Assembly (NCBI GenBank): GCA_902763185.1
Contig: CACWQT010000002.1
Location: 71,874-135,873 of the forward strand
Direction: 5' to 3'
Length of the DNA stretch: 64,000 bases
DNA from: an uncultured Rhodospirillales bacterium
Lineage (GTDB): Bacteria > Pseudomonadota > Alphaproteobacteria > RF32 > CAG-239
Within the stretch, counting starts at the first letter, position 1. Each line of letters opens with the position of its first letter. Shown here piece after piece: positions 5,673 to 12,687 of the stretch. Position numbers and translations under genes: made by a program. Under the pieces are notes generated by a model. It saw only the letters and a list, made by a program, of their open reading frames with translations, had not been told where the DNA came from and made no database searches.

Positions 5673-5721
5673 GTATTTAAGGCAAAACATTAAAAACCGA
5701 AAAATCGCCATAAAAGCAATT

Positions 5722-5846
5722 TTGCAAAGGGTGGAATAAAGTGCGGTGCTATCGTCGGATGTCCTGCCCTAAAGCGGAGCTTACTTAAGGGTAAGTGAGC
5801 ATTTAGGGACAGGCTTCCATCCGGCGATATGACCGTACTTTAGCAC
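5722..5846. repeat. Structured hairpin element, type B copy 1, with a GCAAAGGGTGG left flank and a CCCCCAC right flank
   Basis: The 94-nt imperfect hairpin at 5738..5831 pairs aaagtgcggtgctatcgtcggatgtcctgccctaaa with tttagggacaggcttccatccggcgatatgaccgtacttt. It shares ATGTCCTG (5749..5756) and ACAGGCTTCCAT (5799..5810) with the copy at 11056..11163. Confidence 0.75.
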
Positions 5847-5848
5847 AT

Positions 5849-5880
5849 CCCCCACTACAAAATCAAAAGAGCCACCTTGC
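5849..5880 (-). terminator. Rho-independent terminator of rpoA
   Basis: The reverse strand reads GGAGCUGCC-GCAA-GGUGGCUC followed by UUUUGAUUUU. This is a GNRA-capped stem plus a U-run, about 40 nt after the rpoA stop. Confidence 0.7.
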
Positions 5881-5917
5881 GGCAGCTCCTTATACGCAAT
5901 ATTTAAAGATTTAAGAT

Positions 5918-6928
5918 TTAGAAATGCTCATCGCACTTTTTAATCAACTCTTCAATATTCTCTGGTGGCCAACCCGGAGTTTCCATACCGAGATGGATTC
6001 CCATCTTAGCCAATACTTCTTTAATTTCGTTCAAAGACTTACGACCAAAGTTCGGTGTGCGGAGCATTTCTGCTTCTGTCTTTTGAACCAAATCACCGAT
6101 ATAAACGATATTGTCGTTCTTTAAGCAGTTTGCTGAACGAACAGAAAGCTCAAGTTCATCAACCTTGCGCAGAAGATTTCTGTCAAACGGAAGCTCTTCT
6201 TTAACATCAACAACTTCGCTTTCCGGCTCATCAAAGTTAATAAACGGCTTCAATTGGTCTTGCAAAATACGTGCAGACAAGGCAACGGCATCTTCAGGTG
6301 ATACCACACCGTTTGTTTCAACAACCATTGTCAACTTGTCATAATCTGTATTTTGACCGACACGAGTCTTATCAACTTTATAAGAAACTTTACGAACAGG
6401 AGAATAAATTGCATCAACAGCAATCACGCCGATTGTTGCATCAGCAGCCTTGTTTTGCACGGCAGGAACATAACCTTTACCTGTGCCTACTGTCATTTCC
6501 ATAGAAATTTTAGCACCTGCATCCAAAGTGCAGATAACATGATCAGGATTCATAATTTCAACATCATGACCTGTTTCAATCATACCGGCAGTAACAACTT
6601 TCGGACCTTCTGCCTTCAAGCGCATAATCTTCTGCCCTTCGGAATGAACGGCAACCGCCAATCCTTTAATATTTAAGATAACGTCAGTTACATCTTCACG
6701 CATGCCTTCAACAACTGAAAACTCGTGCAACACGCCGTCAATTTTAACGGAAGTAACTGCTCCGCCTTGTAAAGAAGATAACAAAACTCTTCTTAAGGCA
6801 TTACCTAAAGTTAAACCAAAACCTCTTTCCAAAGGTTCTACGACAATTTTCGCAATATTTTTGCCTTCGCCAGAATTAACCTCCAAATTAGTCGGTTTAA
6901 TTAGTTCTTGCCAATTTTTCTGAATCAC
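5918..6928 (-). CDS. rpoA: DNA-directed RNA polymerase subunit alpha
   Basis: 336 aa: [12 protein letters not shown]..., [18 protein letters not shown], and a C-terminal domain with [12 protein letters not shown]. Confidence 0.95.
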
Positions 6929-8047: not shown

Positions 8048-9574
8048 CTATTCTTTTAAGGATGCATTGATGGCGTTTTCTTGCGCCCAATTTCGTATAG
8101 TATTAATATCATCCATCCTCATTTTAGCCATAGGAACCATTCTCTTTAATACTTTTTCAAAATCAGCCATGGACAAATTAGATTTACTTTCACCATTTAT
8201 CTTTCTTACATATGCTTCTAGTAGTGAATCCTTTACCCATGACTCAATTTCAGCTCCAGTTAGACGTATATTTTTACCAAGATTACTTTCTCCAGAAAGT
8301 TTTGCCAATTTATCTAAATCATAATTTTTTATATCTCTGCCTATTTTTCTTATATGGATTTCTAATATTTTCTTCCTTTCCTCAAAGTCTGGTAAATCCA
8401 CAAAGAAAATTTCATCAAAACGACCTTTACGGAGTAATTCTGGTGGAAGGCTAGTAATATTATTAGCTGTTGCAAAGGTAAATACTGAAGCCGTTTTATC
8501 TTGCATCCAAGTTAATATATTGCCCAAAACTCTAGAAGATGTGCCTGAATCGTTATCATTTTGAAGTCCTTTTTCAATCTCATCTATCCATAATACACAA
8601 GGTGCAATTGCTTCTGCTGTTTTTATAGCCTGTCTGATATTAGCTTCTGATTCTCCAATATATTTTCCATAGATTTTACCAATATCTAGCTTTAACAACG
8701 GCATATTCCAAGCCTTAGCTATACATTTTGCCGTTAAAGATTTTCCACATCCTGGAACTCCAACTAATAAAACGCCTTTAGGTGCTGTTAATCCAAACTT
8801 TTGAGCATCATCAGAAAATGTTTTACCTCTTATTTCAAGCCAATATTTTAAATTATCTAGGCCACCGATATCTTCTAACGATAAGGAATTTTCAATGTAT
8901 TCTAAAATTCCACTTTTTCGGATAATCTGTTTCTTTTCCTTAACAATGCTTTTAACATCACTAATATCTAGGCAATGATCTTCAACCAAAGCACGTGATA
9001 AACAATTTTCTATTTCAGCGTGGGTTAGTCCAATTGCAGCATCTGTTAAAGCCGTTATAACTTCTGGAGATGTATCAATCTGTGCTTTTTCTTCATCTTG
9101 ATAATCATCCATAAATTTTTTAATTTGTTTCTTAATAGATTCCCTATCTGGTAATGGATAATCTAATACCGTTACCTCTGATGCAATATCCTTACTTATA
9201 TCAGATGATGTGGAGATTATAATACAATTACATCTGTACCCTTTATGCCTGATGTTTATGGCAAATTCCTTAAATTCTCTTTCGTACGCAGAAAGCGAGA
9301 CATCAAAAAATACAAAAATTGCAGGTTTATCTAATTTTGCAAGTTTTTCACATGCTTTAATAGCGGTCTCCACATTTTTTGTGTATTCTTGATTTTCAAA
9401 ATCAATATGCTTTCCCTTCAGTCCAGAAACTGAACTCCAAGTTACTAAATAATGCTCTAGTGATTTGGTTATTTTTTCTATATCTGTAAGTAATCTATCC
9501 TCCTCAACAGTTTGAACCAAAATCAGAGGGTACCTAGCTTTGATATAATTTTTTAATTCATCACTAAAAGTCAT
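8048..9574 (-). CDS. Ycf46-like AAA+ ATPase (classic-clade AAA module with a roughly 260-aa N-terminal domain)
   Basis: It has Walker A GVPGCGKS, Walker B VLWIDEIE, and second-region-of-homology/Arg residues ATANNITSLPPELLRKGRFDEIFF. The N-terminal segment IKARYPLILVQTVEEDRL and the linker EKKQIIRKSGILEY...IGGLDNLK match my memory of the Ycf46 family. The ATG at 9574 has an AAAGGA RBS 6 nt upstream; the ORF track extends it to a TTG at 9589. Confidence 0.85.
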   Translation of the reverse strand: MTFSDELKNYIKARYPLILVQTVEEDRLLTDIEKITKSLEHYLVTWSSVSGLKGKHIDFENQEYTKNVETAIKACEKLAKLDKPAIFVFFDVSLSAYEREFKEFAINIRHKGYRCNCIIISTSSDISKDIASEVTVLDYPLPDRESIKKQIKKFMDDYQDEEKAQIDTSPEVITALTDAAIGLTHAEIENCLSRALVEDHCLDISDVKSIVKEKKQIIRKSGILEYIENSLSLEDIGGLDNLKYWLEIRGKTFSDDAQKFGLTAPKGVLLVGVPGCGKSLTAKCIAKAWNMPLLKLDIGKIYGKYIGESEANIRQAIKTAEAIAPCVLWIDEIEKGLQNDNDSGTSSRVLGNILTWMQDKTASVFTFATANNITSLPPELLRKGRFDEIFFVDLPDFEERKKILEIHIRKIGRDIKNYDLDKLAKLSGESNLGKNIRLTGAEIESWVKDSLLEAYVRKINGESKSNLSMADFEKVLKRMVPMAKMRMDDINTIRNWAQENAINASLKE

Positions 9575-9591
9575 TGCCCATCCTTTCAATA

Positions 9592-10794
9592 TTACAATTC
9601 CAAACGTCTTTTGGTATTTTTCGGCTTTTTCTTCTGCTTCATTGAAGAAGGTAAAGTCTCATTGGTAACATTTTCGTTATCAGATGAAGAACTTGCAATA
9701 TTTTTTATAGATTTTAAGACTCCATTTTCAAATGTTCCTGCTATTTTGGGATTACCATCTTCATCATGGGTAATAATTTCTCCATCAAACACACCACCAT
9801 TGTAAGTCGCTTTTGTTCGAGGTTTTCCGTCTTCATTAAAATTTTCTGTAGTTTCTAATACCCCATCTTTATAATGTGCAATGCATGTAACATTGCCAAC
9901 TTCATCATAAGTAATTGTTTCACCGTTTAATAATCCATTTTTATATGATGCATCTGTTTGAATACCTCCTGTATTGTAATATGCTTTTATGTTAATTATT
10001 TGATCATTCGCCCAATTTTCTTCTCGCGTTAAACGACCACTATTGTCATAATACTTTGAGATACCTTCTAATACATCGTTTGCATAAGTTGCTTCACTTT
10101 GCAGGGCACCATGGGGATAATAAAGTTTTGCGGTACCTTCAATCACACCATTTTTATACGGCATTTCACTTTTTAAGAAACAACCAGAATAAGCTTTTGA
10201 AATACCTTCAATTACTCCATTAACAAAGGGTGTTTCTGCTTCTAAATTTCCGTATTTATCATATTTTTTTGCCACACCATTTAATACATCATCATAGAAT
10301 TGAAATTCATATTCCAAATTACCTTTTTTATCGTATTGTTTCCATAGCCCATATTTTTTATTTCTATAGATTTTTCCTTCCCTATACAAATTTCCATTTC
10401 TATAATATTCTTGTGTTGTTTTAGCTAATTTAGCTTCATTTTCCTTGTTTTTTTCAGAATTTGATGAAGAAATTAAAGCAATAAGTAAAAATAAGACTAT
10501 CCAAACTATAAAAGATGTTTCACTTGATGTCTTTATAGCTCCTTGCGTTAAATATTTTTTTGCTATGTATCCTGTAATACTAACGTCAAAATTTTTAAGT
10601 TTAACAGTTGATTTAACCCACCCACTTGAGTGAAGTTCACCACTTATCTCTTGCCCTTTAGTTAAACTTCCTAAAATTCTGCATTTAGTACTAGCACATT
10701 CCCGAATATTAACAGATGCATTTGCCGTATAAACATTAGCATACGCATTTGATGAATTAAATAGAAATAAAATAAAAAATAAATATTTCAGCAC
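9592..10794 (-). CDS. Membrane protein: signal peptide + SH3b domain (outside) + one TM + about 10 MORN-variant (YwqK-type) repeats (inside) + Lys-rich tail
   Basis: It has a GTG start with GGAG 7 nt upstream. The order is signal peptide MLKYLFFILFLFNSSNAYA, then an SH3b-like segment (ANASVNIRECASTKCRILGSLTKGQEISGELHSSGWVKS), then the TM FIVWIVLFLLIALISSS followed by a K-rich segment. After that come repeated ~23-aa units (YxNGxxEGxxKxYxxxGxLxxE) and the tail KQKKKPKNTKRRLEL. Confidence 0.8.
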   Translation of the reverse strand: MLKYLFFILFLFNSSNAYANVYTANASVNIRECASTKCRILGSLTKGQEISGELHSSGWVKSTVKLKNFDVSITGYIAKKYLTQGAIKTSSETSFIVWIVLFLLIALISSSNSEKNKENEAKLAKTTQEYYRNGNLYREGKIYRNKKYGLWKQYDKKGNLEYEFQFYDDVLNGVAKKYDKYGNLEAETPFVNGVIEGISKAYSGCFLKSEMPYKNGVIEGTAKLYYPHGALQSEATYANDVLEGISKYYDNSGRLTREENWANDQIINIKAYYNTGGIQTDASYKNGLLNGETITYDEVGNVTCIAHYKDGVLETTENFNEDGKPRTKATYNGGVFDGEIITHDEDGNPKIAGTFENGVLKSIKNIASSSSDNENVTNETLPSSMKQKKKPKNTKRRLEL

Positions 10795-10872: not shown

Positions 10873-11025
10873 TTATATTTAAACTTAAAAGCCGCTTATC
10901 AAAGCGGCTTTTGCAATGGGTTTGAGAAAATGCCCTGCTGGAAGCAGATTTGCGACTGAGGTTTACAAAACCGGTAAATAAAGGAGCAAATCTGCAATCA
11001 TGAGGGCGTTTTACCAAGCCCCCAC
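10873..11025. repeat. Structured composite element, type A copy 1 (conserved 18-mer + small terminator hairpin + GCAATGGGTTTG linker + long hairpin + CCCCCAC)
   Basis: It consists of TTATATTTAAACTTAAAA (10873..10890), the hairpin GCCGCTT-ATCA-AAGCGGC (10891..10908), TTTTGCAATGGGTTTGA, a long hairpin at 10927..11012, and CCCCCAC at 11019..11025. It is homologous to 12688..12827. Confidence 0.8.
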
Positions 11026-11055
11026 GAAAAAATGCTTAGTTTAATAAAAAGAAAA

Positions 11056-11163
11056 AATTTGAGATGGATAGAAGTAAATGTCCTGTGGCAAAAATCCTAG
11101 TGTAGATAAAACTACATGAATTTTTGCCAACAGGCTTCCATTTACGATTAGACGTTCAAATTT
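11056..11163. repeat. Structured hairpin element, type B copy 2
   Basis: This 108-nt imperfect hairpin pairs aaatttgagatggatagaagtaaatgtcctgtggcaaaaat with atttttgccaacaggcttccatttacgattagacgttcaaattt. It ends 7 nt from the secY stop. It shares ATGTCCTG (11078..11085) and ACAGGCTTCCAT (11130..11141) with copy 1. Confidence 0.75.
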
Positions 11164-11169
11164 TCCTTT

Positions 11170-12513
11170 TTATTTCTTTTTCTTGACGAGAGCAGCCTTC
11201 TTCAACAACCCCTCATACTGATACGCAAACAAGTGCGATTGAACTTGTGTGATAAAGTCAAGTGTCACTTGCACCACGATGAGAAGTGTTGTTCCACCCA
11301 AAACAAACGGAACATTTAACTTGGCAATCAAAATTTCCGGCAAGATACACAATGCCGCCAAATAAGTTGCACCGAGAACGGTTAAACGGGTTACCACATA
11401 ATCCAAATACTCTGCGGTATTTTTACCGGGACGAATACCGGCAATAAATCCGCCATGCTTTTTGAGGTTATCAGCGGTTTCTTCGGGGTTAACCACAACA
11501 GCGGTGTAGAAGAACGCAAAGAACACAATCAAGAACGCATATAAGAATAAGTAAAGCGGTTGACCATGACTTAAATAACGACTTAAAGTTTGCACCCATG
11601 CCGGTCCATTAGTTGACCAAATATTGGCAATTGTAATCGGGAGCAACAACAAAGCGCTGGCAAAAATCGGCGGAATAACACCGGTCGGGTTAACTTTTAA
11701 CGGCAAATGAGAGCTTTCAGCGGCTGTCATGCGAAGACCGATTTGACGCTTAGGATATTGCACCAAAATCTTTCTTTGTGCCATTTCCACCTTTAAGATA
11801 ATAAACACCAACAAAATACTCATCAGGAACAAGCCCAAGATAACCAAAGGTGACATAGAACCGATACGCCCTAATTCCAATGTCTGACCGATTGCAGACG
11901 GCACGTTAGCAATAATACCGACGGTAATAATAAGAGATGAGCCGTTACCGACACCGCGTGAGGTGATTTGATCACCGAGCCAAACGATAAACATTGTGCC
12001 ACCGGTAAGCGAAATAATGGTAGAAAAGATAAATGTATAAGGCGCGATTACCACCGCACTGGAACCGTCACCGTTAGATAAGCTCATAAGACCAAGCGCG
12101 ATACCATAACCTTGAACAATTGTAATTAAAACGGTTAGGAGCTTGGTATAATGCACCATTTTGCGGTGCCCTGCTTCGCCCTCTTTCTTAAGCGCCGCCA
12201 AAGACGGAACAATTGACTGTCCCAATTGTAAGATAATGGAGGCCGAGATGTAAGGCATAATGTTTAAGGCAAAAATGGTCATACGCTCCAACGCACCACC
12301 GGAAAACATGTTAAACATACCCAAGATACCGTTAGAATGTCTGGCAAACAAATCCGCAAGCACCCGCGAATCAATGCCCGGAAGCGGAATAAACGTTCCC
12401 AAACGGAAGACGATTAAAGCGCCCAAAGTAAACCACAAACGTTTTTTCAAATCCGTTGCTTTACTAAAGATAGAAACATCTATATTTGCTGTCTTTTCAC
12501 TTAATGCGACCAT
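11170..12513 (-). CDS. secY: Preprotein translocase subunit SecY
   Basis: SKATDLKKRLWFTLGALIVFRLGTFIPLPGID and the full 10-TM layout are present. I chose the start at MVALSEK (12513), which has AAGGA 8 nt upstream; the ORF track extends to 12540. Confidence 0.95.
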   Translation of the reverse strand: MVALSEKTANIDVSIFSKATDLKKRLWFTLGALIVFRLGTFIPLPGIDSRVLADLFARHSNGILGMFNMFSGGALERMTIFALNIMPYISASIILQLGQSIVPSLAALKKEGEAGHRKMVHYTKLLTVLITIVQGYGIALGLMSLSNGDGSSAVVIAPYTFIFSTIISLTGGTMFIVWLGDQITSRGVGNGSSLIITVGIIANVPSAIGQTLELGRIGSMSPLVILGLFLMSILLVFIILKVEMAQRKILVQYPKRQIGLRMTAAESSHLPLKVNPTGVIPPIFASALLLLPITIANIWSTNGPAWVQTLSRYLSHGQPLYLFLYAFLIVFFAFFYTAVVVNPEETADNLKKHGGFIAGIRPGKNTAEYLDYVVTRLTVLGATYLAALCILPEILIAKLNVPFVLGGTTLLIVVQVTLDFITQVQSHLFAYQYEGLLKKAALVKKKK

Positions 12514-12687
12514 TTTTATTTCCTTAAAATTATTATTCAAACACGACAGAAAAGCACTGTTTTTGACACAGATACTTTACCGAATTGCACCTAATCTAAA
12601 CCATAAAATTTAATTTTACCTTTAAAAAGTGCTACTTTTCCACCACCTTTTAAACAAAAGAACAGGAGTAAGAAACATAAAAAAATT

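Follow-up and report, generated by a model that had tools for sequence, protein, structure and literature searches.

Long modular hairpin repeats with replication-locked orientation in the genome of an uncultured alphaproteobacterium

We examined 64,000 nucleotides of DNA from an uncultured Rhodospirillales bacterium (the whole stretch, positions 71,874 to 135,873 of contig CACWQT010000002.1, is called the window here, corresponding to C2:71874-135873 of genome G000). A preliminary description of this sequence had singled out two long hairpins, named type B, one next to rpoA (copy 1) and one next to secY (copy 2), and had suggested that the internal loop they share is a site of protein or ligand recognition. 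A search of the whole genome showed that the two are no isolated pair of regulatory hairpins: type B is one core type of a large superfamily of interspersed repeats of about 140 bases, found in many copies in this species and its relatives, whose stems covary, whose parts are exchanged between copies, and whose orientation follows the direction of replication. On balance, we favour the view that these are non-coding, modular hairpin DNA repeats resembling REP/BIME elements and that they are processed at the replication fork in the form of a folded single strand.

Both imperfect hairpins are present at the positions given in the preliminary description, and their stems have indeed diverged, the cores being just 49% identical. 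What they keep in common is a spaced motif pair, ATGTCCTG / ACAGGCTTCCAT, with exactly two matches in the window (5759-5820 and 11078-11141, both on the + strand). The pair goes beyond chance, since it had no match in 100 dinucleotide-preserving shuffles of the window. When folded, both copies show the same 1x4 asymmetric internal loop, a 5' T opposite a 3' CTTC. The fold of copy 1 reaches -70.3 kcal/mol (z -9.8) and that of copy 2 -38.9 kcal/mol (z -6.0), or -44.2 kcal/mol for the trimmed complete unit. The surroundings first reported were also borne out: copy 1 lies past the rpoA terminator, framed by GCAAAGGGTGG (5724-5734) and CCCCCAC (5849-5855); the right border of copy 2, at 11163, is 7 nt from the stop of secY (11170-12540, minus strand); and an element of a second kind, type A, stands beside copy 2. 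The features are listed below in window positions, with contig coordinates prefixed C2; R1 is a covariance model with a 36-pair structure, built from 35 aligned cores of this genome (alignment A2).

5689 to 5855, + strand: complete type B unit, copy 1 (sequence, fold, and nhmmer frame-model match at C2:77566-77724), in the order ATTAAAAACC, degenerate small terminator-like hairpin, TTTTGCAAAGGGTGG, long hairpin, CCCCCAC
5737 to 5842, + strand: long-hairpin core of copy 1, made up of its middle and apical modules (R1 match at C2:77610-77715, 105.2 bits, E 1e-26)
5759 to 5766, + strand: 5' half of the internal-loop motif of copy 1, ATG-T-CCTG (exact pattern match)
5779 to 5800, + strand: apical module of copy 1, GGAGCTTAC-TTAAGG-GTAAGTGAGC (fold)
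5809 to 5820, + strand: 3' half of the internal-loop motif of copy 1, ACAGG-CTTC-CAT, with CTTC unpaired (pattern and fold)
5858 to 5900, - strand: rpoA intrinsic terminator, outside the element (sequence; rpoA RNA contigs stop here)
10877 to 11022, + strand: neighbouring type A unit (nhmmer match at C2:82750-82895, E 3e-40)
11043 to 11174, + strand: complete type B unit, copy 2, with a degenerate A/T-rich outer stem, AATAAAAAG / CTTTTTATT (sequence, fold, and list of open reading frames)
11056 to 11162, + strand: core long hairpin of copy 2 (R1 match at C2:82929-83035, 97.3 bits)
11078 to 11141, + strand: motif pair of copy 2, around the apical module TAGTGTAG-ATAAAA-CTACATGA (pattern and fold)

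The core of copy 1 is the top-scoring R1 match of the genome; in its fold, the apical stem has a G.T closing pair and a GGA/GA purine loop on its flanks. With its outermost A/T-rich stem, copy 2 extends over the secY stop codon (11170-11172). The type A unit shares its outer frame with type B (ATTTAAAC, small hairpin, TTTTGCAATGGG ... GCCCC) and has the same orientation. Between secY and rpsM, where adk is expected, the window contains genes for a MORN/SH3 protein and an AAA ATPase (8048-10794), and the secY-side junction of this insertion carries the type A and type B units.

The host genome is 1.58 Mb long (39.6% G+C, 27 contigs), has an estimated completeness of 100%, and carries an alphaproteobacterial tmRNA. 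Its secY has its nearest relatives in gut and rumen metagenome-assembled genomes (MAGs) labelled uncultured Azospirillum or Alphaproteobacteria, and its DNA was detected in bovine and sheep gut metagenomes. A relaxed motif search followed by nhmmer recovered more than 43 full copies and many fragments from this genome, and the motif pair recurs in 47 R1 matches. These further copies are not near-identical: the median pairwise identity of type B cores is 55%, and at least 95% identity is found in 7 core pairs, at unlinked loci. Together with type A elements and hybrids, there are 66 element blocks in the genome, all intergenic and totalling 10.4 kb, with units of about 105-165 nt, some in tandem arrays and some at contig ends.

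Across the genus, which consists of uncultured rumen and gut Alphaproteobacteria, R1 found 1 to 63 copies in 29 of 35 congeneric species and none in the other six; the motif pair also occurs in 69 distinct copies from other species. Outside the genus, R1 matches are weaker (23 in G036, from another genus of the family, and others in a few further families), and what these diverged relatives have in common is mainly the apical module GGAGCGTAC-N6-GTACGTGAGC. Loci L097-L120, from G036, G039, G037, G058, and G060, contain long-hairpin repeats of their own, with different stems and the apical word GGAGCGTAC-N4-6-GTACGTGAGC. That other genera and families of the same class have this word in common despite their different stems suggests that no part of the superfamily is older or under tighter constraint than the apex. 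The exact motif pair is too loose a pattern for public genome and viral contig collections of their size; of 160 loci from these collections re-scored with R1, one was genuine, from a water-deer colon MAG. No Rfam family matched in the window at gathering thresholds, nothing relevant matched copy 1 up to E 10, and BLAST of the units against plasmids and phages gave chance matches only. The family is previously uncatalogued; the closest known kinds are REP/BIME/REPIN and IS200/IS605-derived elements, from which it differs in lacking their enzyme and in its architecture.

A conserved asymmetric loop within an otherwise freely covarying helix had been proposed from the two window copies, and this was upheld by 35 copies of the same genome (A2) and 69 distinct copies from other species (A3). 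Standard pairs occupy 84.4% of the cells in A2 (63.0% in shuffles, and 33-42% when the 3' partner is slid) and 84.9% in A3 (67.2% and at most 40%, respectively). Both sides have changed in 29 of the 36 pairs in A2 and in 31 of 36 in A3, with 289 double-change cells observed against 110 expected in the former and 419 against 148 in the latter; the covariation score was reached by none of 500 shuffles of either alignment. Three islands stay constant. The first is the 1x4 internal loop, ATG-T-CC opposite GG-CTTC-CAT, in which ATGTCC is retained by 53 of the 69 cross-species copies and GGCTTCC is nearly invariant; its variants are GAG-C-CC / GG-CTTC-CTC and loops of CATC or CCTC. The second is a purine-rich loop beneath the apical helix (GGA/GA, ACGAG/TGAC, or a TA bulge). 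The third is the apex, GGAGCGTAC-N6-GTACGTGA, with the helix GCGTAC/GTACGT, usually the loop ATAGAA, and a G.T (G.U) closing pair in 34 of 35 own-genome and 61 of 69 cross-species copies. Inspection ruled out a k-turn at the GGA/GA loop, which has no 3-nt bulge beside the tandem G.A pairs, and a short minus-strand reading frame starting from ATGGAAGCC was discarded because it is not conserved between subtypes.

The internal loop had also been read as a site of protein or ligand recognition. In part this holds, since the fixed loop looks like a macromolecule recognition site; a riboswitch-like role with a small ligand is unlikely, because genomes carry anything from 0 to 63 copies. The position of the loop points to a further role. 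Copies are mosaics of outer frame, middle stem, and apical module in almost free combination. Outer frames are of two kinds, one reading ATTTAAAC, small terminator-like hairpin, TTTTGCAATGGGTGGGATAAAGTGC ... GCTTTAGCAC.CCCC and the other TTAAGG.GGGAAATTTTG ... CAAAATTTACCCCTTAA; there are several middle stems and three apical types. The conserved loop falls exactly on the joint between middle and apical modules, and because of this position it may serve as a recombination joint as much as a binding site. Most likely, the loop is a feature read by some factor on the folded single strand and a joint of module exchange as well.

Type A units have the first kind of frame and the orientation in common with type B, and hybrids of the two types exist. 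The exchange can be followed at orthologous sites. At one of them, the frame is kept around a type B core in G002 (locus L086:1400-1640) and a type A core in G000 (C15:25306-25460), next to a gene that is 88% identical between the two. At another, the type is the same and the differences are paired (CCTG/CAGG versus CCGG/CCGG, and GTCAAT/ATTGAC versus GCAAAT/ATTTGC); a third site has different modules, and a fourth has three tandem copies in place of one. Many sites remain occupied across species, at 73-78% flank identity, while their content varies. About 6 of 11 sites filled in relatives seem to be element-free in our genome, as judged from BLAST coordinates and, in one case, an alignment. 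At C6:44122-44480 of G000, three tandem 120-nt units, each consisting of a frame with a collapsed core and a second, solo frame, are followed by a full type A unit. Such solo frames appear to have arisen by deletion between copies of GTGCTAT, a short direct repeat found in both arms. Elements lie at gene 3' ends, and for most copies the neighbouring leading-strand gene has its stop codon next to, or within, the right end of the + form.

The orientation of the elements is uniform. Judging by local GC skew and third-codon-position skew, the + form, ATGTCC..GGCTTCCAT, is on the strand with more C than G in 47 of 47 type B copies and 66 of 66 blocks of the own genome. Of these blocks, 23 follow only a leading-strand gene and 5 only a lagging-strand gene; 25 lie between convergent and 5 between divergent genes, and 8 are at contig edges. 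The five that follow lagging-strand genes are reversed relative to the gene and retain their polarity relative to replication. In six other species, 20 regions of 13-20 kb contain 72 elements of type A or type B, of which 71 obey the same rule; the sole exception is in a region with skew near zero. Orientation tracks replication, not transcription.

The genome itself falls into two compartments. Contigs C1, C3, C4, C5, C8, C10, and C12 (about 740 kb, 37-40% G+C) are nearly without replication GC skew, which is close to absent even at third codon positions, and hold no type A or type B elements. In the remaining contigs (about 830 kb), which account for all 66 blocks, the skew is strong and uniform (GC3 skew mostly 0.2-0.4). 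A chimeric bin is an unlikely source of the element-free contigs: a region of C1 and the window on C2 have similar depth in the same four independent metagenomes, and the presence of priA on C8, a low-skew contig, also counts against it. A second replicon could explain the two compartments, as could a different mode of replication.

Palindromic, non-coding, intergenic elements of variable copy number might be miniature inverted-repeat transposable elements (MITEs) cut and pasted by a DDE transposon, for example an IS630-like one with a TA or TTAA target, and a single orientation could then result from later selection against the other. One frame type does end TTAAGG...CCTTAA, with TTAA at both borders, but these borders are indistinguishable from the palindrome itself, and the other frame type has neither TTAA nor a duplication. 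DDE insertion is not polar, whereas of 138 elements or blocks here, 137 point the same way, and the two strands are about 1-2 kcal/mol apart under DNA parameters, too little for the selection required. Moreover, terminal-inverted-repeat recognition needs no whole-stem covariation, and the own genome contains no insertion sequence or multi-copy gene. We regard this as the least probable of the explanations weighed here. Correia/NEMIS elements of Neisseria, ERIC sequences, and Rickettsia palindromic elements are likewise intergenic palindromes of about 100-150 bp that form long hairpins and differ in copy number between related species. Yet those insert either way and have sequence-conserved ends and target duplications, whereas the elements described here have variable ends, covarying stems, and uniform polarity.

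The replication-tied orientation also bears on whether the hairpins act as RNA, be it as stabilisers of 3' untranslated regions (UTRs), terminators, protein-binding RNAs whose loop contacts the protein, or small RNAs. The tandem G.A loops, the invariant G.U pair, and the wealth of covariation are what functional RNAs typically show, and the units come directly after stop codons, with a small terminator-like hairpin. The secY RNA contig ends at 11156, and copy 2, as its minus form, is probably carried in the secY 3' UTR. In most copies, however, the strand bearing the G.U and G.A pairs is antisense to the adjacent leading-strand gene, and an orientation set by transcription predicts the opposite of what the blocks after lagging-strand genes show, all five of which keep the replication polarity. 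The long type B hairpin also failed an intrinsic-terminator test: it is followed by CCCC.AC or CCTTAA with no T run, and it is the frame's separate small hairpin alone that is bordered by A/T runs on either side. In a bovine metatranscriptome with an rpoA contig depth of 41-89, the rpoA RNA contig (run X10, 5896-6112) stops at 5896, at the gene's own terminator; copy 1, which lies beyond, is not covered by RNA contigs there and appears in no RNA run, a weak negative given that these are unstranded assembled contigs. Copy 1 has no Rfam match even at E 10, and copy numbers range from 0 to 63 within one genus. We see little chance that the family consists of structured RNAs. Together with this weak negative on transcripts, the tie of orientation to replication makes a DNA-level element likelier than an RNA gene, and the molecule that folds is likelier to be single-stranded DNA than a ligand- or protein-binding RNA.

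Which DNA strand would fold is suggested by the stems. In the own genome, those of the + form contain 106 G.T against 25 A.C pairs (72 against 25 without the invariant apical pair), and the + form is the more stable fold in 30 of 35 copies. Across species, too, it is the more stable: this holds for 48 of 65 copies under RNA parameters and for 46 of 63 under DNA parameters (p about 1e-4). By inspection, tandem G.A loops are likewise found on the + form. With moderate confidence, we take the folded strand to be the + form, which has the lagging-strand sequence and is the parental leading-strand template.

Given these observations, how would the repeats be maintained and spread? Handling at the fork as a folded single strand is suggested because element polarity is locked to replication direction. 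Type B is one core variant of a long-hairpin superfamily in which the outer frame of each unit encloses a middle stem and this, in turn, an apical stem-loop; modules are exchanged between copies, tandemly duplicated, and deleted between short direct repeats. What the data show is the family with its structure, module exchange, orientation rule, and lack of known enzymes; the single-stranded form, the part played by the loop, and the way the repeats spread are inferred. In the reading we favour, two kinds of handling can be envisaged: an as yet unrecognised enzyme might carry out strand-specific single-strand transposition, or copies might undergo template switching and gene conversion with one another. 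The T/CTTC loop, the purine loop, and the G.T-closed apex GCGTAC-N6-GTACGT would then be the features that an acting factor reads, and the same invariant features could provide micro-homology for module swaps.

The closest parallel is with the REP/BIME/REPIN elements of Escherichia coli and Pseudomonas and their RAYT transposases. These too are extragenic, non-coding palindromes at gene 3' ends, numbering in the tens and forming mosaics and tandem clusters, persisting over long periods in a lineage, and thought to be handled as single-stranded hairpins. Of the features by which REPINs are recognised, our elements have the extragenic palindromes in mosaic clusters and lack the RAYT in the same genome, a gene that the repeats typically flank. 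They also differ in their strictly replication-locked polarity, in the cassette-like swapping of inner modules within a conserved frame, and in their units, each of which is one long, multi-loop hairpin of 105-165 nt and not a doublet of 20-40-nt REPs. Members of IS200/IS605 and their gene-less derivatives (PATEs) resemble our elements in that their orientation is tied to replication, their folded ends rather than sequence alone are recognised, and there is no obvious target duplication, which for our elements applies to the GCAATGGG-type frame. In contrast to them, our elements have no transposase and form one hairpin as a whole rather than two subterminal ones; no conserved tetra- or pentanucleotide target was seen at their left border.

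A derivation from REPIN/REP-BIME or IS200/IS605 elements, with the Y1 HUH transposase (RAYT or TnpA) missing from the assembly or acting in trans, would account for this shared anatomy of extragenic palindromic hairpins, mosaic clusters, and long persistence, and an orientation locked to replication is the hallmark of single-strand transposition by Y1 enzymes (PMC6006769). Y1 genes do occur in 15 of 36 genus genomes; however, their presence is unrelated to element copy number. The richest genomes (63, 33, and 25 copies) have no Y1 gene, the first of these being G020, whereas G010, with 16 Y1 matches, many of them partial or interrupted by stops, has 2 elements, and no element lies within 1.5 kb of four intact Y1 genes. 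With no Y1 gene in an own genome estimated to be complete, and with the better-folding strand on the other template strand than in IS608, we find such a derivation improbable.

Several results weigh against the reading we favour itself. It comes with no candidate enzyme: our genome has no match to the Y1 HUH family (Y1/RAYT, PF01797), no reverse transcriptase, and no MobA-type relaxase, and across the genus all three are absent or uncorrelated with copy number. Apart from three small pairs, an all-against-all comparison of its proteins gave no family with at least two members at 60% identity, from which it follows that the genome has no insertion sequence. Nor is there a gene flanked as in REPtrons, elements lying on both sides of only secY and a small open reading frame resembling a lipoprotein. 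The strand asymmetry is modest, as the excess of G.T over A.C pairs outside the apical pair is gone across species (86 versus 80), and the strand that folds better belongs to the leading-strand template, whereas in the IS608 paradigm it is the lagging-strand template that carries the active strand. No clean pair of empty and filled sites was recovered at strain level, which leaves target site and boundaries unproven: related-strain contigs (Logan) end at the repeats, and filled and empty spacers at species level are too diverged to fix the borders. Left flanks frequently, but not always, end in CCCC(A/T). The transcript evidence, coming from unstranded assembled contigs, is a weak negative only. 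Finally, sites that stay occupied for long and compensatory differences between orthologues would also fit a function that serves the host.

One such host function would be that of a single-stranded DNA signal comparable to the single-strand origins (sso) of rolling-circle plasmids. On the leading-strand template, the folded + strand would attract RNA polymerase, primase, or a restart factor, by which DNA synthesis would be primed or restarted, and polarity would be functional rather than a by-product of insertion. Plasmid sso, which are imperfect hairpins some 160 nt in length, function in a single orientation and have small conserved islands in variable stems (PMC5703833, PMC4598088), namely RSB, TTATGCCGAGAAAATTT (consensus from PMC4598088), and CS-6, TAGCGT (PMC5703833, PMC4598088). 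Our units have the same size and logic; they are orientation-locked (66/66 and 71/72), occupy their sites across species at the flank identities given above, and are found without exception in the replication-skewed half of the genome. RSB is partly matched by TTTTGCCGAG..GAGAAAAT, found in some frames, and CS-6 by the apical (T/G)AGCGTA. Yet the RSB-like word is strong in only a few copies, the major form, TTTTGCAATGGG, matching RSB poorly, and CS-6 is in the terminal loop of ssoA whereas the similar word here is in the apical stem. R1 had no match on the genuine ssoA of pE194 and pC194 (best E 0.6), and BLAST against plasmids and phages was empty. Compared with the hairpins of about 150 nt that make up ssoA in pE194, pC194, and pMV158, with which they may share single-orientation action on single-stranded DNA if they have any priming activity, our elements are chromosomal, occur in dozens of copies, and have no Rep gene or double-strand origin nearby.

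We rejected membership in ssoA on these grounds and retain only an sso-like mode of action as an alternative. In pC194 (L145, minus strand, about 706), a stretch just under the CS-6 hairpin, GAATG-T-CGGC ... GCCG-AC-CATTC, looks by eye like AATG-T-CC ... GG-CTTC-CATT of type B; it is absent from pE194 and was treated as a coincidence. The idea that extra priming sites make up for a missing PriA was also dropped, as PriA was found in all genomes searched, above the curated cut-off in 34 of 36, and no restart function is lacking. In addition, the element is dispensable, because six congeners carry no copy, and the leading-strand template is normally not single-stranded. An sso-like signal serving the host is, in our judgement, clearly unlikely.

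Beyond the reading we favour, we also entertain, as unlikely, a new kind of replication-fork-coupled single-stranded DNA element that would need no known HUH, DDE, or reverse transcriptase enzyme. It could be a chromosomal counterpart of plasmid single-strand origins, folded on the leading-strand template and priming or restarting synthesis. Alternatively, it could be a selfish hairpin that spreads and exchanges its inner modules by template switching at the fork or through an unrecognised enzyme specific for hairpins, which would recognise the T/CTTC loop and the G.T-closed apex. Both versions would fit the fact that the skewed half of the genome holds all the elements and the other half has neither skew nor elements.

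Interspersed hairpin repeats are common in bacteria, and for few of them is the function or the mover known. This family offers clean handles on both questions: a fold defined by strong covariation, three invariant features that some factor presumably has to read, a near-perfect replication lock across seven species, cassette-like module exchange at fixed sites, and genomes free of Y1/RAYT, reverse transcriptase, and MobA-type relaxase genes, to which the own genome alone adds freedom from insertion sequences. In practical terms, the repeats break assemblies of rumen and gut Alphaproteobacteria and mark gene ends and operon break points. If a partner of these hairpins were found, it would be a new enzyme acting on single-stranded DNA or would reveal a new replication-linked role for chromosomal hairpins.
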